From a virus (taxonomy: Duplodnaviria > Heunggongvirae > Uroviricota > Caudoviricetes): 34,974 nucleotides of DNA. Made by a program: the position numbers and the translations under genes. Position 1 is the stretch's first letter; every line of letters begins with the position of its first letter. A model generated the notes under the pieces. That model did not search any database and had not been told where the DNA came from. It worked only from the letters and a program-made list of their open reading frames with translations. Below, piece by piece: positions 4,748 to 34,974 of the stretch. Location of the stretch: the IMG/VR virus record IMGVR_UViG_2778261250_000007; one strand, given 5' to 3'.

Positions 4748-7700
4748 GCGTCGTATCCCCCCTGATCGCTGTAGTTACTCCTGGCTTTTGCCTTCAGCCT
4801 GCGTTCACGTTCATCAAGCTGGCGGGCCACCTCCCGCGCAATATCCTGCGCACTTTGTCCTGGCTGCGTCTGAATGATGATCTGCGTCGGTGCCTCAATC
4901 CGTTGAACGGGCGGCACAGTGGCTGCACGACTCACCATCGCTTCGCCGCCTTTCGCGGGAAGTGCCAAAGGATGCAACGGTGGAAGCTCTGCAGGCGCGG
5001 CAGCAACGCCCATCATTCCGGCAACAACGGCAGCCAGTGCAGCTGTATTTCTCCGGCTGGTCACATTTGCCGGGCCGTTAACAATTTCCGGCCCGTTTTC
5101 ACCGACGATGCCAAACTGCCCGCGCGGGATATACCCGCCGCTGTCATACATCCCCGCAAAGCCATATCCCCATGACGGAAAACCACCCGATGGCATCATC
5201 ACTTTACCGTCTGCATTCACCGTCGCAGGTTGCTGACGCGTCACGCTTTCCGGCAGTTTTGCCTTTGCAGCCTCTTTACTGACAATGCCGAGTTTCTCCA
5301 GCAACCAGGAAACGCCGGATTTCAGGGAGTCCAGCGGATGCATGACCATATTCAGCCCTTCCGCCAGTGCCTCCCCGAATCGTAGCCCCATTGCCGCTGC
5401 GCTCTGCAGTTCGGCAGAGGTCGACTTAACGGGCGTCAGCAGATCAGTAAACCAGCCCCACAACGCCTGCACTTTGTCGCAAATCCACTGAAACACAGGC
5501 TTAAGTGGTTCGAATGCTGCACTGATGGGACCTGCCGCCGCTTTGAATCCTTCCACCACACCAGCGAGAAATGCGGTGATGGGTTGCCAGTATTTCCAGA
5601 CAACCAGCGCCACGCCCGCCAGTGCAGTAACCACAAGACCTATCGGACTGAGCAGAGCACCTAACAGACCAGATATGGCATACAGAGCAACGCGCAGCAT
5701 CGCCAGCGGACCGGATGCCAGTACTCGCAGCACCGCGCCTGCGGCAGCCAGTCCACCGCGTAGTGCTGCCAGTGGATTCATAAACATCACAGCAACAGCA
5801 CGTAAACCGGATAATCCAGACCGCAACAGTGCAACCGGCACACCTGCAACAGTTTTCAGGACATTCCCCGTCAGTGATGCCGTGCGGCGCAAAGACGACA
5901 ACGGCGCAGTAAGTAAACCCGCTGCGTTGCCCGATGAAGCAAGCCCGCGTCGCAGCAGTGCCAGTGGAGCGCCAGCTAACCAGGACAACGCGCTGCTGGT
6001 TCGTGTTACTGCTACCGTAACGGAAGGTAACGTTTTGATACCCAGCACAGAGAATCCCAGACGGATGACTGCCAGCGGCCCCAGCACTGCAGCCAGCGCC
6101 ACCGCTAAGGTGCCGAGGCCTACGGTAACCGCAGCCACAACAGCCGCTACTTTCATCAGTGTGCCTGTCAGTTCCGGGTTAGCTTCCACCCAGCGGCGCA
6201 ACGCCCCCGTGATGCTTTTCACCGTGTACAGAATATCCATCAGCGGCTGGCGCAGCGTTTCGCCCAGGCTGCTGAAGGTGTTCTGCGCTCCGGTTTTGAC
6301 CAGCAACCACTGAGCAGAAAGTGAGTCTTTGTTGATGTCGGATTCTTTCTGCATGGAGCCGAGCGCATCATTGCCCGCTGTCAGTTTTAACTGACGCTGC
6401 AGTTCCGGCAGGTTGTTTGCCAGTTTCGCCGCGTCATCGCCAAACTCTTTACCAAACAACATGGTCATGGCAGACAGACGCTTATCCTGCGGCAGTGCGT
6501 TCACCTTCTCCAGCACACGCTGGATGGTTCCCATCGCATCCTTCGTCATCTGCTTTTCAATCACTTCAGGATTGAGTTTCAGCAGATTCATTCCTTCAAA
6601 GAAACTCTTGCTCTGCATGGTGGCAATGGACAATTCACGCACCATCGCGTTTGCTGCACTGGCTGCAACCTCCGGCGCAGCGCCCAGTGTCAGGAAGGTG
6701 GAACCCAGCGCCGCCGCTTTACGATAATCCAGACGGTCAGCCACACCGCCCAGACGTTGCATCACATCAATGATGTCTGCCCCTTTCGACATGGCGTTAT
6801 CATCCAGATAGTTCAGCGCATCACCGAGCTGTTCAATATTGCGGGTGGGAATTTTGTAGAGCTGGGCGATTTTCCCCAGACTTTCTGACAGTTCATCCGC
6901 TGGCAGCTCAAAGGCTGTTGCCGCCTTTGCTGCCGTACTGGCGAAGGCCAGCAGGTCACGTTTCTGGTCTTCCCAGCTGTCGTCAGGGTTTGCGACGTTC
7001 ATGCGCGCACCACCTTCAACCAGTGCAGCGAAGTCCACCGCACCGTTTTCCATCGGCAACTGTTCGCTGGCAGCTTTGATGGCATCCTGCATTTCGTAAA
7101 AACGCGCAGTGCGGTTGCCATTATCGTCACGCAGACCATTGACCTGCTTTGCCACACCTTTCATGGCATCTTCCATGCTGGTATAGCTTTTTACTGCCGC
7201 CATCACTGGCGCACCCATTGCCAGCCCTGCAGCCGTGGTAGTGGCTCCGGCTCCTGCGATGCGATCGCGCACTTCAAGCCGTCTTGAGTATTGTTCTCTG
7301 GCAGCGTTCATCCGTGCCTGTTGTTCACCCAGACGTTTAAGTGCTTTTTGCTGGCCCTCCAGTGCCTGCCTTGTTTCTTCAGCATTTTTCTTAAGTTCTC
7401 GCTGGGCACTACTGAGTTGTCTGGTATCAATCCCTGATTCTTTAAGTGCCTGACGTTGTCTCTGGACCGCCCCCAACAAGCCGTTATAGGTCTGCTGAAG
7501 TTCCTGTACTCGTGTTTTGGCCTGACTGAATAACTTTGCCTGCGCGGCGGTTGGCCTGTTAGTGGCAGCAAATTGTGTGGCGAGTTTTGCCGCCTCTTCG
7601 CGGGCTGCGTTCAGGTTGTTGGCTGTTATGGCTAGTTGCGAGCGCGTCTTGCGAAATTCATCAATTCTGCCAGACTGCTTATTCAGTTCTTTGAGGCTGT

Positions 7701-14929: not shown

Positions 14930-15002
14930 AAAACTAGAATTTCCAAGTCTTCGCAGATATATTATGTGGAGTTTTCTCATTGACATTATCCTAGGTATCA
15001 GA

Positions 15003-16709
15003 ATGGAACATCTAAAGCAACTACTAAAAAAAACTGAATTTATCGAAAAATACGGCATTGGGAATGCACATCTATTATGGGCCTTAGGTTTATATTTGGA
15101 CGAATCAGACTTTGACAAATTAGCCTCAGATGGTTTGACTGACGGAGGTAATGATAAAAAAATAGATTTCATTACTGTAATAAATTCAACTTTATTTATT
15201 GCGCAAGGTTATTACTGCACCCAAGATAAATTGAAAATTGTTGCGCCAGCAAATAAAGCTTCCGATCTCAACACTGCTTTAGCATGGATTATTTCAGGTT
15301 CTGGTCAATCACCAAATGAAAAATTAAGAGCTAAAATTGCTGAAGTTAGAAAACTTATTGACGATAATGAAATAGAAGCTGTAGAGCTTCTATATATTCA
15401 CAATTGTGCTGAGTCAGAACACGTAAGAGTTGAATTAGAAACATGTCGTGACTATTTAGCAAATCGCTTCTCTAATAAAGAGATAGAAGTAACCTGCAAA
15501 GAGTTGGGCGTATATAGCCTTGAAAAATTATATATTGCACTTTCGCAACAAATTGTAGTAAAAGATGATATAATTTTTGATGGTACTATTGTAGACTCGG
15601 TAGAAGGTGATGGTTGGACCTCACGTGTTGGCTTCGCTAATGGCAGTTGGCTGAACTCACTTTTCAAAACCCACGGCGCTGAATTATTCTCAGCTAACTA
15701 CCGTGGTTTTATGGGGTTGAGTAAAAGAAGAAAAATAAACTCTTCCATTAGAAGTACGGCAGAGACAACTCCTAAAGACTTTTTTGTTTTTAATAATGGA
15801 GTATCAATCCTTACAACAAAATTCAGACAAGATAATAATAAGGCAATTTTAGAGGGTATATCCATTATCAATGGAGCGCAAACTACTGGTTCCATAGGCT
15901 CTGTGCAAGATATACAAAAACTTGATGGATTGAAAGTACTATGTAAAGTTATTGAATGCAATGACGCAGATAAAGTAAAAAAAATAGTTCAATTTAATAA
16001 TACTCAAAACCATATCACGACCTGGGATCATTATTCAAATAGTCCAGAACAAAAGCAGGTAGAAGAAGAGTTTTCGACCTTAGGCTATATTTACTCGTTA
16101 AAAAGAGGCTTTGAGAATACTGGTTCTTTATTTGGTATTGAGTCAGTTGCACAACCCTTAATAGCTCTACATGGAGATTATGCAAGCGCAAACAGGGGTA
16201 AAAACTATGTTTTCGACACTAAAACTGCTTATGACAATGCATTTCATGAATCAAAAGCCCAACATATTCTATGTGCATATACCATTTCGAAAGCAATAGA
16301 AAAAGTCAAGGCACAGATTAAAAATAAAGATAATAAAATAACATCTGATGAAGACAACTTACTTTTCCTGCAAAACCTCAAGTCTCGCTTCTTTTTGATA
16401 TCTATAGTCGGTGAAATTCTGGAGGAACTGGCCGACAAACCATTAAATAAAAAGTTTGTTAAATATAAATATAATACTTCACTTGCAACAAACAATTCGC
16501 TAGACGACTTAATTAACCTATGGTCGCCAGTTATCGCTGCCATTCTACCCTTTATCATTAGAGTTACAGGTCAAGATCTAACAACTTACTTATCTGAAAC
16601 AGAAGATCCTTTGCATACCGTTGCCAGTGAAGTTAAAAACAATCTCAGATCCTTAAAAGCGTTTCAACCTATAGAACCATTAAGGATCTTAGCTGAAAAC
16701 TTAGAGTAA
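15003..16709 (+). CDS. AIPR-family (abortive infection phage resistance)-like protein; AT-rich cargo gene between S and V
   Basis: 569 aa from ATG 15003 (an alternative in-frame ATG at 14964 gives 581 aa). The motifs LTDGGNDKKIDF near the N-terminus and INGAQTTGSI match my recollection of AIPR-domain signatures. Strongly AT-rich and inserted in an otherwise conserved late-gene block. Confidence 0.55.
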   Translation: MEHLKQLLKKTEFIEKYGIGNAHLLWALGLYLDESDFDKLASDGLTDGGNDKKIDFITVINSTLFIAQGYYCTQDKLKIVAPANKASDLNTALAWIISGSGQSPNEKLRAKIAEVRKLIDDNEIEAVELLYIHNCAESEHVRVELETCRDYLANRFSNKEIEVTCKELGVYSLEKLYIALSQQIVVKDDIIFDGTIVDSVEGDGWTSRVGFANGSWLNSLFKTHGAELFSANYRGFMGLSKRRKINSSIRSTAETTPKDFFVFNNGVSILTTKFRQDNNKAILEGISIINGAQTTGSIGSVQDIQKLDGLKVLCKVIECNDADKVKKIVQFNNTQNHITTWDHYSNSPEQKQVEEEFSTLGYIYSLKRGFENTGSLFGIESVAQPLIALHGDYASANRGKNYVFDTKTAYDNAFHESKAQHILCAYTISKAIEKVKAQIKNKDNKITSDEDNLLFLQNLKSRFFLISIVGEILEELADKPLNKKFVKYKYNTSLATNNSLDDLINLWSPVIAAILPFIIRVTGQDLTTYLSETEDPLHTVASEVKNNLRSLKAFQPIEPLRILAENLE

Positions 16710-19627: not shown

Positions 19628-20278
19628 TCAGCGGCTGTCATTACGCAGTCTGCGCTCCAGCTGCTGTTTGTCTTTTTTCACGCCACAGCGGGGATCGAGC
19701 TGTAACGCATGGTTGAGATGGTTAAGGGCAGAAGCCGGATTGCTTTCACTTAGGACAGCGCCAATCGCTTTATGCAGACGCGCTCGTGACTGGTCCGGCA
19801 TATCCAGACCGTCTGTCAGCTCCAGCGTCTGCAACAACAGATCGGCATCAAAGCCGGTGGCGGCAAGCATTGCGCTCTGCGCCGCGTCTGCCATTTCCTC
19901 TGCCAGCACGGTCTGCACATTGCGGTTACCCAGCGGCATCACCCAGCCATGACGCAGGGCATGACGCCCGATCTCCAGCGCCCCGGCATAATCTCCGGCA
20001 TCAATGCGCCACAGCATCACGTACATCAGCACGTCATCCTGCTGTGCGCCTCCAGCAGTCAGGACACCCTCTGCCCAGGCGGCGTACTTCGGCAGCAGCT
20101 CCACCTTAATTTCCGCTTTTTTCACCGTGGACTGAACGCCCTTGAGACGGCGGCGGTCTTCCGCCAGTTGCAGCAGCATCAGGTCATAACCCGACGCGTG
20201 GCGAACACTGCCGCCCTCGCGGGCGGCCTGTTCAGCCTGAACGCGCAGGCGATGCTGCCGTGCGGGACTCAGGCTCAT
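19628..20278 (-). CDS. M: Terminase endonuclease (small) subunit M
   Basis: 216 aa, ATG at 20278, downstream of N. Confidence 0.8.
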   Translation of the reverse strand: MSLSPARQHRLRVQAEQAAREGGSVRHASGYDLMLLQLAEDRRRLKGVQSTVKKAEIKVELLPKYAAWAEGVLTAGGAQQDDVLMYVMLWRIDAGDYAGALEIGRHALRHGWVMPLGNRNVQTVLAEEMADAAQSAMLAATGFDADLLLQTLELTDGLDMPDQSRARLHKAIGAVLSESNPASALNHLNHALQLDPRCGVKKDKQQLERRLRNDSR

Positions 20279-22329: not shown

Positions 22330-24096
22330 ATGAACACCACACTGACACCCGCAGATCTCGATCCCCGTCGGCAGGCCATGCTGCTGTACTTTCAGGGATA
22401 CCGCGTAGCCCGCATTGCTGAAATGCTGGGCGAGAAAGTTGCAACTGTTCACAGCTGGAAAAAACGCGACAAGTGGGGTGATTATGGGCCGCTGGATCAG
22501 ATGCAGCTCACCACCGCCGCACGCTATTGCCAGCTCATTATGAAGGAGCACAAAGAAGGGAAAGATTTCAAAGAAATTGACCTGCTGGCGCGCCAGTCGG
22601 AGCGCCACGCGCGGATCGGCAAGTTTAACAATGGCGGCAACGAAGCCGACTTAAACCCTAACGTCGCCAACCGCAACAAAGGCCCACGCCGTCAACCGGA
22701 AAAGAATGTCTTCACCGATGAACAGATTAAGAAGCTGGAAGAAATCTTCCATTCCTCCATGTTCAACTACCAGCGCCACTGGTGGGAAGCCGGAAAAACC
22801 AACCGCATCCGCAACCTGCTGAAGTCACGCCAGATCGGCGCGACCTTTTACTTTGCCCGTGAAGCCCTGATTGACGCCCTGCTTACCGGACGTAACCAGA
22901 TTTTCCTTTCTGCCAGTAAGGCACAGGCTCACGTTTTTAAGCAGTACATCATCGACTTCGCCAAAGAAGTCGAGGTGGAGCTGAAAGGCGATCCGATGGT
23001 GCTTCCTAACGGAGCCACGCTTTACTTCCTCGGCACCAATGCCCGCACGGCCCAGAGTTACCACGGCAACCTGTATCTGGATGAATATTTCTGGATACCG
23101 AAATTCCAGGAACTGCGCAAAGTGGCTTCCGGTATGGCTATTCACAAAAAATGGCGACAAACCTATTTTTCCACGCCATCCAGCCTGACACACAGTGCTT
23201 ATCCGTTCTGGTCCGGTGCGCTGTTCAACCGTGGGCGCAACAAAGCCGATAAGGTGGACATCGACCTGTCCCACAGCAATCTGGCCCCCGGCCTGCTGTG
23301 CGCAGACGGGCAATACCGCCAGATAGTCACCGTGGAAGATGCAGTGCGCGGCGGATGTAACCTTTTCGACCTTGACCAGTTGCGCATGGAGTACAGCCCG
23401 GACGAATACCAGAACCTGCTGATGTGCGAGTTTGTGGACGATCTCGCGTCCGTGTTTCCGCTCAGCGAGCTGCAGGCGTGCATGGTGGACAGCTGGGAAG
23501 TCTGGACCGACTTTCATGCACTGGCTCTGCGCCCGTTTGGCTGGCGCGAAGTGTGGATCGGTTATGACCCGGCAAAAGGTACGCAAAACGGCGACAGCGC
23601 CGGATGCGTGGTGGTGGCACCGCCAGCCGTGCCGGGCGGTAAGTTCCGCATTCTTGAGCGTCACCAGTGGCGCGGGATGGACTTCCGCGCCCAGGCTGAC
23701 GCCATCAAAAAACTGACCGAACAGTACAACGTGACCTATATCGGTATCGACTCGACCGGCGTTGGTCACGGGGTTTATGAGAACGTGAAAGCGTTCTTTC
23801 CTGCCGTCCGGGAGTTTGTCTACAACCCCAACGTTAAAAACGCCCTGGTACTCAAGGCCTACGACATTATCAGCCACCGCCGTCTGGAGTTTGACGCCGG
23901 GCACACCGACATTGCGCAGTCATTCATGGCTATCCGTCGCGCCACCACCGCCAGCGGCAACCGCCCGACCTATGAAGCCAACCGCAGCGAAGAAGCCAGC
24001 CACGCCGATCTGGCCTGGGCAACAATGCACGCACTGTTTAACGAACCGCTGCAGGGCGAGTCCGCCAATACCAGCAATATTGTGGAGATTTTTTGA
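22330..24096 (+). CDS. P: Terminase ATPase (large) subunit P
   Basis: 588 aa, ATG at 22330; a P2-type large terminase by size and position. Confidence 0.9.
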   Translation: MNTTLTPADLDPRRQAMLLYFQGYRVARIAEMLGEKVATVHSWKKRDKWGDYGPLDQMQLTTAARYCQLIMKEHKEGKDFKEIDLLARQSERHARIGKFNNGGNEADLNPNVANRNKGPRRQPEKNVFTDEQIKKLEEIFHSSMFNYQRHWWEAGKTNRIRNLLKSRQIGATFYFAREALIDALLTGRNQIFLSASKAQAHVFKQYIIDFAKEVEVELKGDPMVLPNGATLYFLGTNARTAQSYHGNLYLDEYFWIPKFQELRKVASGMAIHKKWRQTYFSTPSSLTHSAYPFWSGALFNRGRNKADKVDIDLSHSNLAPGLLCADGQYRQIVTVEDAVRGGCNLFDLDQLRMEYSPDEYQNLLMCEFVDDLASVFPLSELQACMVDSWEVWTDFHALALRPFGWREVWIGYDPAKGTQNGDSAGCVVVAPPAVPGGKFRILERHQWRGMDFRAQADAIKKLTEQYNVTYIGIDSTGVGHGVYENVKAFFPAVREFVYNPNVKNALVLKAYDIISHRRLEFDAGHTDIAQSFMAIRRATTASGNRPTYEANRSEEASHADLAWATMHALFNEPLQGESANTSNIVEIF

Positions 24097-25127
24097 TGGG
24101 AAAGAGTAAGAAAAACCGCGCTGCGGCGACGAAACAGAGCCAGCATAAAAATCAAACTTCAGCCGAAGCTTTCAGCTTTGGTGATCCCATTCCTGTACTG
24201 GACCGCCGCGAACTGCTGGACTATGTGGAATGCGTACAGACGGATCGCTGGTATGAGCCACCCGTAAGTTTTGACGGACTGGCACGCACCTTCCGCGCTG
24301 CCGTGCATCACAGCTCCCCGATTGCAGTAAAATGCAACATTCTGACCAGTACCTACATCCCTCACCCGCTGCTCAGCCAGCAGGCTTTTTCACGTTTTGT
24401 GCAGGACTATCTGGTATTTGGTAACGCCTACCTGGAGAAACGCACGAACCGCTTCGGTGAAGTTATCGCCCTTGAACCGGCCCTGGCAAAATACACCCGA
24501 CGCGGGTTAGACCTGGAAACCTACTGGTTTGTGCAATACGGTATGACAACACAGCCGTATCAGTTCACGAAAGGCAGCATCTTTCATCTGATGGAACCGG
24601 ACATCAACCAGGAGATCTACGGCCTGCCCGGTTATCTTTCTGCCATCCCATCCGCTTTGCTCAACGAGTCCGCCACGCTGTTCCGCCGCAAGTATTACAT
24701 CAACGGCAGCCATGCAGGCTTCATCATGTATATGACCGATGCCGCGCAGAATCAGGAGGATGTGAACAATCTCCGCAATGCGATGAAAAGCGCCAAAGGC
24801 CCTGGCAACTTCCGCAACCTGTTTATGTACTCGCCTAACGGCAAAAAGGACGGGATTCAGATCATCCCGTTGTCAGAAGTCGCGGCGAAGGATGAGTTTC
24901 TGAATATCAAAAATGTCAGCCGCGATGACATGATGGCAGCGCATCGTGTGCCGCCGCAAATGATGGGGATTATGCCGAATAATGTTGGGGGGTTTGGGGA
25001 TGTGGAGAAGGCAAGTAATGTATTTGTTCGTAACGAACTTATCCCCTTACAAAAACGTATCGAACAATTAAATCAATGGATAGGAAACACAATTATTAAT
25101 TTTTTACCATATTCTCTCCAAAGTTAA
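24096..25127 (+). CDS. Q: Portal protein Q
   Basis: 343 aa from ATG at 24096 (MGKSKKNRAAATKQ...), overlapping the P stop. Confidence 0.9.
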   Translation: MGKSKKNRAAATKQSQHKNQTSAEAFSFGDPIPVLDRRELLDYVECVQTDRWYEPPVSFDGLARTFRAAVHHSSPIAVKCNILTSTYIPHPLLSQQAFSRFVQDYLVFGNAYLEKRTNRFGEVIALEPALAKYTRRGLDLETYWFVQYGMTTQPYQFTKGSIFHLMEPDINQEIYGLPGYLSAIPSALLNESATLFRRKYYINGSHAGFIMYMTDAAQNQEDVNNLRNAMKSAKGPGNFRNLFMYSPNGKKDGIQIIPLSEVAAKDEFLNIKNVSRDDMMAAHRVPPQMMGIMPNNVGGFGDVEKASNVFVRNELIPLQKRIEQLNQWIGNTIINFLPYSLQS

Positions 25128-25139
25128 AAAATAGCATAT

Positions 25140-25162
25140 GGGTGCATAATGTTTATGCACCC
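25140..25162. terminator. Bidirectional terminator hairpin between convergent Q and the TIR gene
   Basis: Perfect 10-bp inverted repeat gggtgcataa / ttatgcaccc with a 3-nt loop, flanked by T-rich sequence on both strands. Confidence 0.45.
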
Positions 25163-25167
25163 TCTTA

Positions 25168-25785
25168 TTACCAGTTAAAAATTGATGAGCTGCGAATTGC
25201 AGGAACATCCGATGGATTTCGTTTAGCAGCTGGTTCCATCAACTTACGCTTATTAAATGCCTGATCAATATAATACTCAGGATTTTTAATAAAGACAGAG
25301 TATTTTACCAATGCACAATATACGTCAGAGTCATTATAATGGGGAACTGTTTTTTCATAAACATGATTCTTTCTAACCAGATAAGGCAAATAATAATCAT
25401 ATCCCAAACCTGGCGTTCTTAGACTTATAGAACATCCGCATGATGGATCTGCACATACTGCAGGAGTAAACACACTGTCGTAAATTTCATCTCTGATAAC
25501 ACCAATTAGACCATTATAGTTTTCTCCCCAGAGTGATGCTTGAATTTCAGTGTTTACAAATGGACGATTTTTGGTTTCCGTTCCAATAAGAACGACAGTA
25601 ACCGTTGAGTCTTTTAAAAAATCCTCACGAATAGTCCTCATTATTGTTTCATCAGTGTTAGTTGTACTAATGTCACCATCACTTACCGACTTATCAATAA
25701 ACGATTCTCCTCCGAATAAATCAATAATCTCATCTTTGAGATCTTGTTCGTTAGCATGATGATAACTAAGAAACGTCTTATGCAT
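25168..25785 (-). CDS. ThsB-like TIR-domain protein (TIR_like/DUF1863 type)
   Basis: 205 aa. N-terminal TFLSYHHANEQD and central STVTVVLIGTETKNRPFVNTEI resemble my recollection of Bacillus ThsB (VFFSFHYQDV and TSVTCVLIGSQTFNRRWVRYEI). ATG at 25785 preceded by GGAGTG and overlapping the upstream gene's TAA (TAATG). AT-rich. Confidence 0.7.
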   Translation of the reverse strand: MHKTFLSYHHANEQDLKDEIIDLFGGESFIDKSVSDGDISTTNTDETIMRTIREDFLKDSTVTVVLIGTETKNRPFVNTEIQASLWGENYNGLIGVIRDEIYDSVFTPAVCADPSCGCSISLRTPGLGYDYYLPYLVRKNHVYEKTVPHYNDSDVYCALVKYSVFIKNPEYYIDQAFNKRKLMEPAAKRNPSDVPAIRSSSIFNW

Positions 25786-26516
25786 TATTCACTCCATTTA
25801 TCAACATTTATATCAAACTCTTTGACTACCTTATCATTGAAGAAATCGTTTACTTCTTTAAAACCTTCCAATACTTGACTAAAATGATAATAATGCTTTT
25901 GTATAATACTTATAGGGGTTAAATGATACGGCAATGATATAAATTCGCCGTTAGGGTCTCTATCCTTTGTGGTCACTTTATCATGATCTGAAACATATTT
26001 ATGCCATCTCCGATAATTATTTTGATGTTTTGTTAAAAAAGAGTTTAAGGTTTTCAAAATTTCATTTGAAAGTAAATACAGTTTTTTATCTCTTTTTTTC
26101 TTCACATCTAGTAATTTCATTTCATCTCTAATGAATTTATAGCACTCATAATATGAGTTTAAAACTTCTTCAATTGAGTCATAATTCGGATCAAATTTAA
26201 ATAATGTTCGCTTCGTATCCAGATAATTTTTTACGCTCTTTTTAAAAAGAAGATCAGACTTATTTAGTAAAATATTAATACCACCAAAACTAAGTTGCTC
26301 CAATCTCAATGAATATCTTTGATGAAATGCACCGACCAGCAAGATATAAGCAACTAAAAATAGTATTAATACTGATAAAAAAGCACGAATTATGCTTACA
26401 TTTGACATGAAATTAACTATAAACCACCATTTTTCAAACGGTGAAAACGGAATGCTCCCCATGATAATAAGTAGAAGAACAAAGATACAACTCCATAAAA
26501 CCCACAATCTGTACAT
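25785..26516 (-). CDS. Two-TM membrane protein with a ~170-aa helical cytoplasmic domain; candidate effector partner of the TIR protein
   Basis: 243 aa from ATG at 26516 (RBS AAGGA). TM helices LWVLWSCIFVLLLIIMGSIPF and IIRAFLSVLILFLVAYILLVGAF. The soluble domain has no motifs I can assign (no Macro or SIR2 hallmarks). AT-rich; translationally coupled to the TIR gene. Confidence 0.6.
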   Translation of the reverse strand: MYRLWVLWSCIFVLLLIIMGSIPFSPFEKWWFIVNFMSNVSIIRAFLSVLILFLVAYILLVGAFHQRYSLRLEQLSFGGINILLNKSDLLFKKSVKNYLDTKRTLFKFDPNYDSIEEVLNSYYECYKFIRDEMKLLDVKKKRDKKLYLLSNEILKTLNSFLTKHQNNYRRWHKYVSDHDKVTTKDRDPNGEFISLPYHLTPISIIQKHYYHFSQVLEGFKEVNDFFNDKVVKEFDINVDKWSE

Positions 26517-26538
26517 AAGAAAGATCCTTTTTCTTTTT

Positions 26539-26566
26539 ATAATACTGCAACTACACCTCAAGTCAA
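26539..26566 (-). promoter_or_regulatory. Sigma70-like promoter for the TM/TIR operon (TTGACT-16-TATTAT)
   Basis: Minus-strand -35 TTGACT (26566..26561) and -10 TATTAT (26544..26539) with a 16-nt spacer, about 22 nt upstream of the ATG at 26516. Confidence 0.45.
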
Positions 26567-26668
26567 AACCCTCTTCTGATATTACCCTCTACTACAGTAA
26601 CCCATCACATGACCTCCGACTTATCAGAAGACTAGCCAAACTTTCTCAATCAAATCAGGTTGCGCGCG

Positions 26669-26687
26669 CTCGTATCCCCGCCACGCC
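26669..26687 (-). other. Candidate cos (cohesive-end) site of the P2/186 family
   Basis: The minus-strand sequence GGCGTGGCGGGGATACGAG matches the first 13 nt of the 186 cohesive end as I recall it (GGCGTGGCGGGGAAAGCAT; P2 is GGCGAGGCGGGGAAAGCAC). Exact termini not established. Confidence 0.4.
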
Positions 26688-26730
26688 TGCCCGCTTTATG
26701 TAGTGGTTTTCATGCACCTGCATGATCTAC

Positions 26731-26756
26731 GCAAAAGCCCGCCAGTTCTGGCGGGC
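26731..26756 (-). terminator. Intrinsic terminator (minus strand) downstream of the DinI-like gene
   Basis: 8-bp GC-rich stem (26737-26744 / 26749-26756, loop gttc), followed on the minus strand by TTTTGC. Confidence 0.4.
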
Positions 26757-26891
26757 CTTAGCAAAAACGATCCTCAAACGATCATGCGATCTCATGCGGC
26801 ATAGACATGCACTACAGAGCTAACGCCTCGCAAGGGCTCGTTGTTCAACCTTGCTGACGCCAGAAGCAAGTTCAGACGCCAGCAACGTTTC

Positions 26892-27125
26892 TTAATGCAG
26901 CCAGCTGTCGTCTTCCCACACCTTCTGCATAATTTTCATCACTTGTTTTCTTTCTTCGTCCAGTTGCAGTCCGGTTAGTTCCACACCGTTAGAGCTACCT
27001 TTGCGAATGCGAATTACCGTTTTGGGATACAGGGGGCGCAGATTGCGGTAAAGCTCGGATTCAAGGGCGTCCAGGGTAGACTGGCTAATCTTCTGCTCTT
27101 TATCGATCATTATTTCAATGCGCAT
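26892..27125 (-). CDS. DinI-family protein (SOS-associated; 186 tum-region-like)
   Basis: 77 aa from ATG at 27125 (RBS GAGGTG): MRIEIMIDKEQKISQSTLDALESELYRNL...VWEDDSWLH, resembling the DinI start MRIEVTI... and C-terminal W-E-x-D-D-W. The track ORF is longer (101 aa). Confidence 0.7.
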   Translation of the reverse strand: MRIEIMIDKEQKISQSTLDALESELYRNLRPLYPKTVIRIRKGSSNGVELTGLQLDEERKQVMKIMQKVWEDDSWLH

Positions 27126-27135
27126 AAAAGTCACC

Positions 27136-27324
27136 TCAGCTGATGACATCCATTGAGCGGTTGTATTCGTGGGTTCTGATTTTTGCCATGAGTTCATCAG
27201 TCAATTCAGAAACCCACTGCAGAGCCAGCCCCTTCTCTTCATCACTACACTCACTAGCCGCTACAAGCTTAAGAAAAAAATCAATGCGCTGGAGCTTCAA
27301 AGACTCCAAAAAATAGTCCTGCAT
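27136..27324 (-). CDS. Small hypothetical protein, first gene of the LexA-controlled unit
   Basis: 62 aa from ATG at 27324 with GGAGGA upstream (MQDYFLESLKLQRIDFF...). No recognisable domain. Confidence 0.4.
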   Translation of the reverse strand: MQDYFLESLKLQRIDFFLKLVAASECSDEEKGLALQWVSELTDELMAKIRTHEYNRSMDVIS

Positions 27325-27365: not shown

Positions 27366-27385
27366 CACTGTTTATATTTACAGTA
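27366..27385. promoter_or_regulatory. LexA (SOS) box
   Basis: cACTGTttATATtTACAGTA matches the LexA consensus TACTGTATATATATACAGTA at 17 of 20 positions (CTG-N10-CAG intact). It lies about 45 bp upstream of the small ORF and DinI-like gene. Confidence 0.6.
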
Positions 27386-27477: not shown

Positions 27478-29892
27478 TTAATACAGGTTCCGCCACTGAT
27501 CATCTTCCTGCAAACGCTGGTTCCGATAGAAGATACGCAGGCCTGCTCCTGACGGAATACTGCCTCCGCGAAGGAGTAAATCGACCTCTTTCTCGCTGCC
27601 ATCAAATCCTCTGGACTTCAGCTCATACACGAGCTGCAGTCGCTGATGGTCTGTAATTCGCTGTTTGTAGTCTTTACGCCGTTTCGGTTTCACCAGGCGT
27701 AACCTTGCTGCCAGTTCCCGGCGCTCTTTTTTGCTCATACTGTGCAGGTAATCGTGCAACTCCTTGTCATCCATGCTGGTAATGTCCGTTCTGGGGTCCC
27801 CATCAGCTGATTTATCTTTCTCCTGTTGGTTCAAATTTTCAGCAAGGGGACAGTTATTGCCACGAGTCCAAGGGGCGCAAGCGCCCTGGTCGGCTGCCGC
27901 CTCCTGAACGTCAACGGCCTTACGAACCATTTTCCACTTCACCGCATGAGTGCAGATCTTGCCCTCTGCAATGGGTGACCAGATGCCATAAATACGAATA
28001 CCGTGATCGCCATATGCGGTCGGTTCTTCGTTGATTTCATAAGCAGTTCTGATGAGGTGATATTTGCGGGGAACCAGTACGCCGCCCTGCTTCATGATGT
28101 AGGTGGCAAAACAACCAGCATCAGCAGCAGCCAGGATTGCATCAAGGCGCGGGTTATCCAGTACCGGCGCACCTGCTTTTTTGTCCCCCTGTTGCCTTGC
28201 CGCCTGACCAGCCAGCAATCGCAGTTCACGGTAAGCCTGACGCCCCGGAATGCCAAAGAAGCGGAATTGCTGAACACGATGCAGAGACGCCCAGGCATTA
28301 ACGTATTCAGCGTTATCACGCAGGGATTTACCCGTTTCCTTGCTGATCTCGCCAGCCAGACCACGCCCGTCAATGTTCTTACTGATGTATTTCGCGATGT
28401 AGCTTGTTGGCGTACCTTTGCGCGGGTTTATCAGCTCAGACTTAAAGCGTGGTCCCGTGTTATTACCCAGCTCCTCGCGGTCTTCACGAATGGCAAACTT
28501 ACGCAACAAAGCAGTAATGGCGCGGCGATCTTTTTTGCGCATAAAACACAACAGGTGCCAGTGAACTGTACCGTCATGATGCGGCTCAGCCACCCGCACG
28601 CCATACCAGCGCAATCCGGCTTTGTGCATCGCCTTACGAAATGCAGCAAACATGCCGACCAGATAATCACTGCTTTGTCTTACCGTCGTATTTGTCCAGG
28701 TCGGGTTGGGCCTGCCGTTATTTAGCGTGGAATGGAAACGTGACGGACAGGTGATGGTGTAGAAAACGGCGCAGTCACCACGCATTTCCGCGATAAGCTC
28801 CAGACCTTTAACACAGGCCATCATCTCATTGCGGCGATGCGCAGGGTTGCTGCTGCTGGCGTTTACCACATCCTCCATGTCCAGCGTGTCGCCGTCTTCG
28901 TTCACCAGTTCATGAGAACGGAAAAACTCCAGCGACTTACGGCGCTGCTCACGTTTATGCATCACGGCTTCATAGCTGACATAGGGAGATGCTTTTTTGC
29001 TGACCAGGCAAACAGCACGCAACTGCTCTTCCCGCCATTCGCAACGCATCTTCCATAATTTCCGGTACCACCAGTCGGCGCACAACATACGCGCCAGCGA
29101 ACCCGGAATGAGTTCATAAGGCACGGGTTTACGGCGGTTTCTTTTCCGGCGGAGTTGCTCAAACGCAGGCGGTATGACATCCAGTCGCAGGGTTTCTGCT
29201 GCCACCTTTTCCCATGTCTTGCGGATTTCTTCAGGCTTAACGTCATCGGTGGCATACAAATCGCCACAAGCTGCATCAAGGCACATGCTCATATGCGCAG
29301 CAACAAGGGTGGACAGGCGTTTCACCTGATCCTGACTCATTTCAGGCAGAATCAGCAGGCCGTCCAGCCCTTCATGGCTTGCCATAAAGCGAAAAGAAGT
29401 GGATAGCTGACTGTCGCGTACATGCTCCAGCCGTTCCAGACATGGCTTAATCGTCTCACGCAAATAGCGGGAATAAGCCTTTGGCCTGCCAAGGCTGCTG
29501 AAGTATTCAATACGTTGCATCAGCGGCTTGCTGATATGGGAAGGCTGGGCATTGACGTCCGCCAGAATGACCATATCTGGATTAAAACGCTGCTGCTCAT
29601 GCGCCAGCTTTGCCCGACTAATGAGCTTATCCTGCTCCATTTCGCGCTGGACAGGATCACGGGATTCATTAAAGAAATAACGCTCCCAGACCTGATCACT
29701 CAGTGCCTCGCGGCGCAGCTGTTCCTGCTCGTTATCGACAGCGTACAGAGTGATCAGGTTTGAAAGTGCAGAAACCGGCGCAACTTCCGCCGGGTCCAGA
29801 TAAGGGTTAATGGCCTTTTTCGGGCTGTTCCATGAGAACGATGCGGCAGCCTCGTTAAAGCCGCAGCAGTTGTTCATATCGGCATGGCTCAT
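27478..29892 (-). CDS. A: Replication initiation protein A (rolling-circle endonuclease)
   Basis: 804 aa, ATG at 29892; size and position as P2/186 gpA. Confidence 0.85.
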
Positions 29893-30746
29893 GCACGTAC
29901 TCCGTACACGGCAGAACTATCCACGCCACGCGAATAATCAAATCCCACCCAGCAGCGCGGCCCGGAAACAGCAATGATTTCTGTTGCTGATTTACCCTCG
30001 CCAGCTGCCACACCGATGCTGCGTTTTGCCTTGATGTAGTGGTGAGTAAAATTGCGATACAGCGAACGGATCAGGGATGTGTCACTGTTAGAAACAATGA
30101 CCGGATGTCCTTCTGATGACCGATGTTCAAGAACAGATGCCAGGTGATACTGGTCATCTTCAGTGAAACCATCAGTGTGATAGCCGGAAAACTTACCGTC
30201 ATACGGCGGATCGCAATACACCACATCCCCCGCCTTCAACATCGCCAGCGTTTCATCAAAGCTGGCGCAGATAAACGTTGCTCGCTGGGCCTTTTCTGCA
30301 AATGCGCGAATTTCTTTTTCAGGGAAATACGGATTTTTATAATTACCGTAGGGAATGTTGAAATGCCCGCTCTTGTTATAGCGACATAAACCACGGTAAC
30401 CGTGACGATTGAGATACAGGAAATATACCGCTTTCATGAAATCAGTAATTTCAGTGGAGTAATTAAACTCCTGCCTTATGTTGTAATAAGCCACCTCCCT
30501 GTTTGCGATCTCAAATAAAACTCTGGCGCGAGATATAAACGATTCACAATCAGCAGCAACCTTTTTATAGAGGTTGATTAAATCAGGATTAATATCCGCA
30601 ACCAGATAGCTGGGGTAATCCGTCTCCATCATCACAGCACAGGAACCCACGAAAGGTTCAACCAGTCGCGGGCCAGCAGGAAGGTGTTTTTTCAGTTCGG
30701 ACATAATGGCGGTTTTATTTCCCGCCCATTTCAGGATGGTGCTCAT
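29889..30746 (-). CDS. DNA N6-adenine methyltransferase (Dam-like, D12 class)
   Basis: 285 aa from ATG at 30746 ([11 protein letters not shown]...), with motif I PFVGSCAV and motif IV DPPY. RBS GGAGGTG. The track ORF extends 20 codons upstream. Confidence 0.8.
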
Positions 30747-30970
30747 ACAGCACCTCCGTTGTAATGTTTGCCTTTCAGCTCTGCGATTTCCTGACAGGTA
30801 ATGCAAAGCTGCACCCCCGGAATGGCACGGCGGCGTGCTGGCGGAATTGGCGCTTCACACTCAACGCAAAGCACGCGGGACACGCCCGGCGTTTTGGCAC
30901 GGGCAGCACGGATATGACGTTGGCGTTCTTCTTCAACTCGCTGCTGTACGAGATCCATTGCATCAGCCAT
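30743..30970 (-). CDS. TraR/DksA-family C4 zinc-finger protein
   Basis: 75 aa with CVECEAPIPPARRRAIPGVQLCITC (C-x2-C ... C-x2-C). Confidence 0.6.
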   Translation of the reverse strand: MADAMDLVQQRVEEERQRHIRAARAKTPGVSRVLCVECEAPIPPARRRAIPGVQLCITCQEIAELKGKHYNGGAV

Positions 30971-33733: not shown

Positions 33734-33921
33734 TTTTTGTTTTTATATCTGCGTCTAAAATAAAAATGAGCCGCAGGTTAACCGCAAAAGTTACATGCTC
33801 ACATAGCAAAAAGAATAGCCAACTTCATTATGGCTTCAGTGAGATGTATGGTCGTAGGATTTCATACATTGACACTGGTTATACATACAGTAAAAATGCT
33901 CTCTACTGGAGGGCATTTTTT

Positions 33922-34974
33922 ATGGCAGTACGAAAACTCACCACAGGGAAATGGCTTTGCGAATGTTACCCCGCCGGACGAAGTGGGCGTCGTGTGCGTA
34001 AACAATTCGCCACCAAAGGCGAAGCTCTGGCTTTTGAGCGTCACACGATGGAAGAAACCGAATCAAAGCCCTGGCTGGGCGAATCAGTGGATCGTCGAAC
34101 CCTGAAAGACGTGGTTGAGCTATGGTTCAAACTACATGGTAAATCTCTGACTGCTGGACAGCATGTCTATGACAAATTGCTGCTGATGGTTGACGCTCTA
34201 GGCAATCCTCTTGCAACCGATCTCACCTCTAAAATGTTTGCCCACTATCGAGATAAACGCCTGACAGGCGAGATCTACTTCAGCGAGAAATGGAAGAAAG
34301 GAGCAAGCCCGGTCACCATTAACCTGGAGCAAAGCTATCTAAGTAGTGTTTTTAGCGAACTATCCCGTCTGGGCGAATGGTCGTATCCGAACCCACTGGA
34401 GAACATGCGAAAATTCACCATCGCAGAAAAAGAGATGGCATGGCTTACCCATGAGCAGATTGTTGAATTGCTGGCTGATTGCAAACGTCAGGACCCAATT
34501 CTGGCACTGGTAGTTAAGATATGCTTAAGCACAGGCGCACGCTGGCGTGAAGCCGTAAATCTTACCCGCTCGCAGGTGACCAAATACCGAATTACCTTTG
34601 TCAGAACGAAGGGGAAGAAAAACAGAAGCATCCCTATCAGTAAAGAGCTTTACGAAGAGATCATGGCGCTTGATGGGTTCAATTTCTTCACAGACTGCTA
34701 TTTTCAATTTTTATCCGTGATGGAAAAAACGTCTATCGTGCTCCCTCGCGGTCAACTCACACACGTTCTGCGCCATACGTTTGCGGCGCACTTCATGATG
34801 TCGGGTGGAAACATTCTGGCCTTACAAAAAATTCTCGGACACCACGATATAAAAATGACTATGCGTTACGCACATCTGGCACCGGATCATCTGGAAACGG
34901 CGCTCCGTTTCAATCCTCTGGCAACGCTGCCAAGTGGCGACAAAGTGGCGGCAGCGGTTGGCATTACCCCGTAA
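33922..34974 (+). CDS. int: Tyrosine integrase (P2/186 family)
   Basis: 350 aa from ATG at 33922 (RBS GGAGGG; MAVRKLTTGKWLCECYPAG...). C-terminal catalytic region HVLRHTFAAHFMMSGGNILALQKILGHHDIKMTMRYAHL carries the R...H-x-x-R...Y signature. Stop at 34972-34974, the window end. Confidence 0.85.
   Translation: MAVRKLTTGKWLCECYPAGRSGRRVRKQFATKGEALAFERHTMEETESKPWLGESVDRRTLKDVVELWFKLHGKSLTAGQHVYDKLLLMVDALGNPLATDLTSKMFAHYRDKRLTGEIYFSEKWKKGASPVTINLEQSYLSSVFSELSRLGEWSYPNPLENMRKFTIAEKEMAWLTHEQIVELLADCKRQDPILALVVKICLSTGARWREAVNLTRSQVTKYRITFVRTKGKKNRSIPISKELYEEIMALDGFNFFTDCYFQFLSVMEKTSIVLPRGQLTHVLRHTFAAHFMMSGGNILALQKILGHHDIKMTMRYAHLAPDHLETALRFNPLATLPSGDKVAAAVGITP

Follow-up and report, generated by a model that had tools for sequence, protein, structure and literature searches.

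Where the DNA of a P2-like prophage is cut for packaging, and which genes can sit beside the cut, are the questions raised by a short G+C-rich sequence in IMG/VR virus record IMGVR_UViG_2778261250_000007. The window, as the whole analyzed stretch of 34,974 nt is called here, carries this sequence at positions 26669–26687, between the portal gene Q and the replication gene A. Comparison with related phages makes it highly likely that the surrounding block, at 26662–26812, is the packaging site (cos) of a 186/Fels-2-type (Peduoviridae) prophage of E. coli that appears to be intact. The sequence at 26669–26687 is very probably a genuine P2/186-family cos. The evidence for this assignment is considered first, followed by the genes found on either side of cos and by the way in which the two sides may be constrained.

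A P2-type cohesive-end sequence and its register

Read on the minus strand, positions 26687 to 26669 of the window give GGCGTGGCGGGGATACGAG, the predicted 19-nt cohesive-end sequence. It agrees with the annotated cohesive end of 186 (GGCGTGGCGGGGAAAGCAT; NC_001317, positions 1–19) at 15 of 19 positions overall and at all 13 leading positions, and with that of P2 (GGCGAGGCGGGGAAAGCAC; NC_001895, positions 1–19) at 14 of 19 positions and at 12 of the leading 13. An earlier sequence-only reading of this DNA had stated that the first 13 nt match the 186/P2 cohesive ends, which holds in full for 186 and misses by a single base for P2. The window contains one copy of the 13-mer, with about 0.001 exact matches expected by chance, and the G+C-rich 19-mer contains the complete 12-nt core of P2-type cos, GGCG(A/T)GGCGGGG. 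The phages P2 and 186 and the satellite P4 are described as sharing a 55-bp cos core and 19-nt 5′ cohesive ends (Ziermann and Calendar, 1990, as cited in PMC5694545, PMC3931495 and PMC9594776). For comparison with the window, the right and left ends of these three genomes were joined and anchored on the overhang. Across the 55-bp core (−29 to +26), the window is identical to P2 at 42 positions, to 186 at 44, to P4 at 43, to Fels-2 at all 55 and to SEN8 at 54. The window has in common with P2, 186 and P4 the sequence TGCAT-AAAACC...AAGCGGGC(A/G) before the 19-mer and YGCGCGC directly after it. Alignment with the cos regions of P2 and 186, the check that the sequence-only reading had proposed, thus shows agreement in sequence, register, flanking motifs and genomic position, and P4 agrees likewise. 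The P2 terminase packages P4, a satellite described as having little in common with P2 apart from cos (PMC9594776).

By homology only, in the register of the annotated P2 and 186 cohesive ends, the predicted nicks fall between 26688 and 26687 on the minus strand and between 26668 and 26669 on the plus strand. Overhang positions 13–19 read ATACGAG in the window versus AAAGCAC/T in P2 and 186, so the exact cut register is assumed. The 19-mer and the CGCGCGC that follows it are identical in Fels-2, SEN8 and Cartapus, and the sequence records of SEN8 and Cartapus begin at the cos site. The published cos of SEN8, a phage isolated as infectious particles, is ggcgtggcggggatacgag, which contains the same 19-mer and was identified by annotation (PMC5427200). 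The cos assignments of SEN8, SEN4/5 and Smp131 were all made by analogy with P2, and no literature report of mapped virion ends was found for the GGCGTGGCGGGGATACGAG variant of the 19-mer. A true cos that is cut in a register unlike that of P2, with an overhang of another length or position, would be consistent with assignments made by analogy, with the divergence at overhang positions 13–19 and with the variability of position 13 within the group (conservation 0.60). Such a register is nonetheless improbable, as AAGCGGGCA and YGCGCGC flank exactly 19 nt in every member, just as they do in P2, 186 and P4, whose ends are annotated as experimentally known. On the plus strand, an ORF of 103 aa (26392–26703) spans the 19-mer; this ORF is probably spurious, since it has no family match and lies antisense to the cargo gene thsG described below.

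A one-sided 151-bp cos module

The extent of the site was defined by a survey that used the portal protein as a probe and covered 80 loci from different species. In 68 of these 80 loci a cos core was located in the interval from Q to gpA, and its orientation was the same every time. Among 58–59 distinct sequences from different species, conservation is 0.75–1.0 from −125 to +26, counted from the first base of the 19-mer, and falls to 0.3–0.4 on both sides, with sharp edges at −125 and +26. The complete conserved cos module of the window is accordingly 151 bp long (26662–26812, minus strand). Its conservation is one-sided, covering about 125 bp on the gpA side versus only 7–10 bp on the Q side. 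Over its whole length the module is identical to that of Fels-2 at 144 of 151 positions and to that of SEN8 at 139 of 151, and its distal part is only about 40–50% identical to the P2-type cos sites of P2, 186 and P4.

The distal part contains three GCAT(G) boxes at offsets −123, −110 and −100 (26784–26810, minus strand), which are putative terminase recognition repeats, a role suggested by their conservation. GCAT boxes stand at matching offsets (−123/−122, −110, −100 and −28) in P2, 186, P4 and the window, the distal boxes of P2 being found at −122, −110 and −100. The use of GCAT repeats at fixed distances as a mark of cos was derived here from P2, 186 and P4 rather than taken from a verified published criterion. 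The sequence GCATG or CATGC is found five times in the 140 nt before the cut versus 0.25 expected per 140 nt of window. Closer to the 19-mer, a perfect palindrome, TCATGCA-GG-TGCATGA (TCATGCAggTGCATGA; 26710–26725, minus strand), carries the proximal GCAT box at −28, and a GCAT at this offset is common to the window, P2, 186 and P4. The module is present in 1253–1277 of 5426 complete E. coli genomes (about 23%), and in the E. coli records among the matches listed, PGAP leaves it without an annotated feature.

Packaging genes and the state of the prophage

The genes expected beside a P2-type cos are present: the site lies between Q and gpA, in a prophage that carries the cognate gpM/gpP terminase genes. 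The large terminase gene P (22330–24096, plus strand) matches Terminase_5, Terminase_6N and Terminase_6C, and the portal gene Q (24096–25127, plus strand) matches PF04860 and is named ‘phage portal protein’ in RefSeq. The small terminase gene M (19628–20278, minus strand; PF05944 Phage_term_smal, 5e-40) encodes the presumed cos-recognition subunit. The replication gene A (27478–29892, minus strand; PF05840 Phage_GPA, 4e-127) forms the far boundary of the cos-proximal variable region. Genes P, Q, M, N and O are intact, and the gene products of full length comprise both terminase subunits, portal, scaffold, capsid, gpA, CI, CII and integrase. The arrangement is kept at 97.6–100% identity in 42 complete genomes. 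Host genes are found at 288–2620 (YbjM, 288–665; an Asp-Al_Ex/TrkA_C permease, 935–2620), which places one prophage end near 2.7–3.1 kb, with the integrase (33766–34974) at the other end of the window.

The site could also be a relic in a defective prophage, homologous to cos and no longer cut or used, a reading that would fit the fact that many genomic P2-like prophages are cryptic and that PGAP annotates the site in none of about 1,280 E. coli genomes among the matches listed. This is improbable, because the module keeps the identities to Fels-2 and SEN8 given above with every conserved column intact, because the terminases, portal, scaffold, capsid, gpA, CI, CII and integrase are full-length and because the 42 complete genomes hold the same arrangement. 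A functional cos in an apparently intact prophage is the reading followed here.

Away from cos, a gene at 14964–16709 (plus strand) encodes a 581-aa AIPR-domain protein (PF10592, 3e-26; PADLOC AbiU, 5e-28). Flanked by the homologues of gpS and gpV and encoded on the strand opposite to them, it occupies the orf30 moron slot of P2. Judged by these domain matches, the AIPR protein is a second defence-type cargo in the prophage.

The gpA side of cos holds an SOS operon

Between cos and gpA lies a small operon downstream of a LexA box, CTGTTTATATTTACAG (27368–27383), the only perfect CTGT-N8-ACAG in the window. The first gene of this SOS operon is a 62-aa ORF (27136–27324, minus strand; RefSeq WP_001154434), and the second is a DinI-like gene of 77 aa (26892–27125, minus strand; PF06183, 1e-22). 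The DinI-like protein is homologous to the C-terminal half of 186 Tum, with 41% identity to Tum residues 71–145 (E 3e-24). The repressor of the prophage carries both Pfam domains of 186 CI, PF07022 and PF16452, so that a LexA operator upstream of a Tum/DinI-like gene is found in a phage with a 186-type CI, as in a 186-type SOS module. The p95-LexA-tum-terminator-cos layout of 186 is mirrored here by the LexA box, the small operon ending in the DinI-like protein, a terminator and cos. In contrast to 186, the DinI-like domain forms a 77-aa protein of its own, the 62-aa ORF before it shows no similarity to the N-terminus of Tum, so that no full-length Tum was found, and there is no orf97. The DinI-like gene is present in 30 of the 80 related loci and the 62-aa ORF is conserved in 45, so that the unit is a semi-core induction module and not swappable cargo. 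The sequence-only reading had placed a DinI/LexA module on the old/tin side of cos; the side is correct, whereas the LexA element is an operator, with no lexA gene, and the operon is a recurrent 186-type SOS-induction operon and not swappable cargo of the old/tin kind. A Dam-type N6-adenine methyltransferase (29889–30806, minus strand; PF02086, 2e-76; PADLOC orphan MTase, 6e-112) is encoded directly upstream of gpA, overlapping it.

The terminator of this operon lies inside the cos module. It is a G+C-rich stem-loop followed by a T-run (26733–26757, minus strand), conserved in the survey, that folds with −24.8 kcal/mol (z = −4.3; zero shuffles fold as well) and is read as the intrinsic terminator of the SOS (tum-like) operon. 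No Rfam match was found in 26400–27000. It is very improbable that the block is mainly transcriptional, combining this strong terminator with the promoter-like site just past the block as the promoter region of the cargo and owing its GGCG...GGGG likeness to cos to chance or regulation, since the 19-mer, the CGCGCGC and the GCAT boxes stand at identical offsets in P4, which has other neighbours and no tum operon, the 13-mer has the low chance expectation given above, Rfam offers no match and the conservation covers far more than the hairpin.

The Q side of cos holds an exchangeable cassette

The interval from Q to cos is 1541 nt in the window versus 148–250 nt in empty-slot relatives. As the sequence-only reading had proposed, a TM/TIR cargo sits between the 3′ end of Q and cos, with its genes at 25168–26516 on the minus strand, the Q stop at 25127 and the 19-mer at 26669. 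The GC content of the cassette is 27–36% versus about 53% for the phage backbone. On the cos side, the match to empty-slot relatives runs through the 19-mer and the adjoining cgcgcgcaac and then diverges; on the Q side, identity to relatives drops from about 0.9 to about 0.5 at approximately 25005–25040, inside Q. These two points delimit the swapped unit at about 25020–26658, and GC content and boundary comparisons together describe it as a low-GC exchangeable cassette (25020–26658, minus strand) that fills the cos-to-Q slot and includes a replacement for the 3′ end of Q. Over its final ~100 nt (25005–25127), Q is AT-rich and only about 50% identical to relatives, with the C-terminal portal motif kept; by this comparison, the incoming cassette supplies the 3′ end of the gene itself. 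Foreign, compositionally distinct DNA replaces the ~150-nt cos-to-Q spacer, as in a cosL-to-Q moron slot. A hairpin between the convergent Q and thsB (25140–25162), with a 10-bp stem and then a T-rich tail in a terminator scan, is likely a bidirectional terminator. Between cos and the thsG ATG, a consensus scan gives a promoter-like site, TTGACT-16-TATTAT (26539–26566, minus strand; 10/12, a consensus match only). The cargo DNA (25128–26668) has no match in 50,697 phage records.

The cos-to-Q slot has been described before as a hotspot. [quoted passage not shown] As with these retrons and ctx, the short stretch that separates cos from the portal gene's end has given way to foreign DNA in the window. 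The window differs from them in that the cargo is a Thoeris cassette and in that the Q-side breakpoint falls within the 3′ end of Q and not at the portal terminator. A cargo boundary at the portal terminator, as in the title of Dodd and Egan, was rejected for the window, since the breakpoint is internal to Q and the two terminators show no homology.

The cargo is a probable type VI Thoeris gene pair

The cassette encodes two proteins. The thsG-like effector gene (25785–26516, minus strand; 243 aa, RefSeq WP_000286099) is assigned from hydropathy, an AlphaFold model and its pairing with ThsB; hydropathy gives two N-terminal TM helices, and the model gives a helical cytoplasmic domain (pLDDT 85). 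This helical domain has no Pfam or PADLOC match, and Foldseek against the PDB gave nothing below E = 0.7. The thsB TIR gene (25168–25785, minus strand; 205 aa) matches PF08937 ThsB_TIR (1e-14) and PADLOC ThsB (4e-12); a tblastn search of phage records with this protein gave only distant matches in Streptococcus and Enterococcus phages. Type VI Thoeris consists of ThsB and ThsG (DUF6650, with or without TM helices) and uses 2′cADPR as its signal (Dec 2025 preprint, bioRxiv 10.64898/2025.12.03.692087). In the same preprint, the system of E. coli ACN001, for which the effector is listed as ‘DUF6650 and TM’, is reported to protect E. coli when driven by its native promoter (Table S2). The TIR protein of the window is identical over residues 1–173, all that are listed, to IMG 2638504641, the ThsB of this validated ACN001 system, and E. 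coli ACN001 carries the region of the window at 99.5% identity. An hmmscan of 28 members of the thsG-like family found PF20355 (DUF6650) in none at E ≤ 1; one 51%-identical relative of WP_000286099 has a precomputed PF20355 match. Unlike type I and type II Thoeris, the cassette has no PADLOC or Pfam match to ThsA, SIR2 or Macro, and the effector model is all-helical with a single hairpin.

The thsG-like family is small (39 clusters), and its genes are always followed by a ThsB TIR gene. Outside the window, the pair occupies the cos-to-Q slot of a Serratia P2-like prophage, where identity is 58%, and three further settings: in Cedecea a site unrelated to phage, in Klebsiella surroundings that resemble a transposon, and in Priestia an island rich in TIR genes. 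In the diverged Serratia P2-like prophage, the stretch at 4780–6354 of the locus holds the pair in this slot, with cos at 4917–4935. These sequence comparisons identify the ACN001 type VI Thoeris system, already validated, as a moron carried by a P2-like prophage, 10 nt from the predicted cohesive end; the context terms ‘prophage’ and ‘P2-like’ are absent from the text of the preprint (bioRxiv 10.64898/2025.12.03.692087). The two proteins had been listed before, in an entry ‘hypothetical + DinI + hypothetical + DUF1863’ that includes WP_000286099 and WP_000549632 (Rousset, 2022, Table S5A; PMC9122126), and both proteins are encoded by the window cassette. The validated AC1 TIR+TM system of the same study (2TM + 1TM + TIR) was considered as the identity of the cargo and rejected, as there is no significant similarity.

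Two variable slots split by cos

Among the surveyed loci, the distance from Q to cos ranges from 101 to 3499 nt (median 1530). The cargo of this slot is of very diverse defence type and includes bSEFIR, TIR_2, AbiLi, AriA, PD-T4-9, putAbiC, KAP NTPase, RES and Fic. Almost all of its ORFs (95 of 99 with an ATG start and at least 90 aa) read from cos toward Q, and gop and beta of P4 have the same polarity relative to cos. In the Fels-2, SEN8, RE2010 and Cartapus group (Felsduovirus/Elveevirus), which has the 19-mer and CGCGCGC of the window and agrees with its module at 139–144 of 151 positions, the cargo in the cos-to-Q slot differs from phage to phage: Fels-2 has a 565-aa protein there, SEN8 a hypothetical protein and an HNH protein, and Cartapus DUF4145. 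On the other side, cos and gpA are 460 to 4390 nt apart, and the genes in between include those for reverse transcriptase, Abi_2, HEPN, GmrSD, methyltransferases and PD-Lambda-5; in P2 itself, old and tin lie on the gpA side of cos. The statement of the sequence-only reading that both flanks of cos are known accessory regions in this family is therefore supported by the literature (PMC5694545, citing Dodd and Egan, 1996, and Nakayama, 1999; PMC9122126) as well as by the survey.

The P2 defence hotspot has been described as gpA to gpQ, adjoining cos (Rousset, 2022; PMC9122126). This is the same locus, treated there as one gpA–gpQ hotspot spanning cos, whereas the cargo of the window is resolved to the Q side. 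As the terminase-side constraints lie almost wholly on the gpA side, the published ‘gpA-gpQ hotspot’ is better seen as two separate slots with cos between them. The idea that cassettes move between P4 and P2 by a cos-anchored shuttle was considered and rejected; a 2026 NAR study reports that defence genes are hardly exchanged between P2 and P4.

A model for the locus and its implications

By homology with P2 and its relatives, the gpM/gpP terminase would recognise a one-sided array on the gpA side of the site, made up of the GCAT boxes at −123, −110, −100 and −28, the stem-loop and AAAACC...AAGCGGGCA. It would then nick the two strands 19 nt apart and so leave the 5′ overhang GGCGTGGCGGGGATACGAG. 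On the Q side only about 7–10 bp beyond the overhang are constrained, so that everything between this point and the final ~100 nt of Q would be free for swapping. Here the swappable segment would hold thsG-thsB, a two-gene type VI Thoeris cassette whose genes point from cos toward Q. While the phage is integrated, cos would be internal, and the cassette may act as a lysogenic-conversion defence driven by its own promoter. Packaged virion DNA would have the cassette at its extreme left end and, at its extreme right end, the LexA-controlled Tum/DinI operon.

Every element of this account has been described before, including the SEN8 cos, the slot hotspot, the gene pair and the ACN001 ThsB, and the finding is thus already known. 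As a discovery it is minor; it confirms that a reading made without tools placed a P2-family cos and both of its cargo flanks correctly. A modest but useful by-product is the precise 151-bp definition of this cos variant, which is present in roughly one in four complete E. coli genomes and has no PGAP annotation among the matches listed.

The Q-side cargo starts 7–10 nt from the cohesive end in the 68 related loci. It is conceivable, if rather unlikely, that the slot beside cos is functional and not merely permissive, with the position serving the cargo; the polarity of the slot may alternatively reflect selection to keep transcription from crossing cos. If the position does serve the cargo, it could do so through the order of packaging and injection. 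Should the GCAT-box side anchor the terminase and be packaged first, as for lambda cosB, packaging would finish, and injection would begin, at the cassette end, and a cell that has just been infected could then express a prophage-borne Thoeris system from a very early stage.
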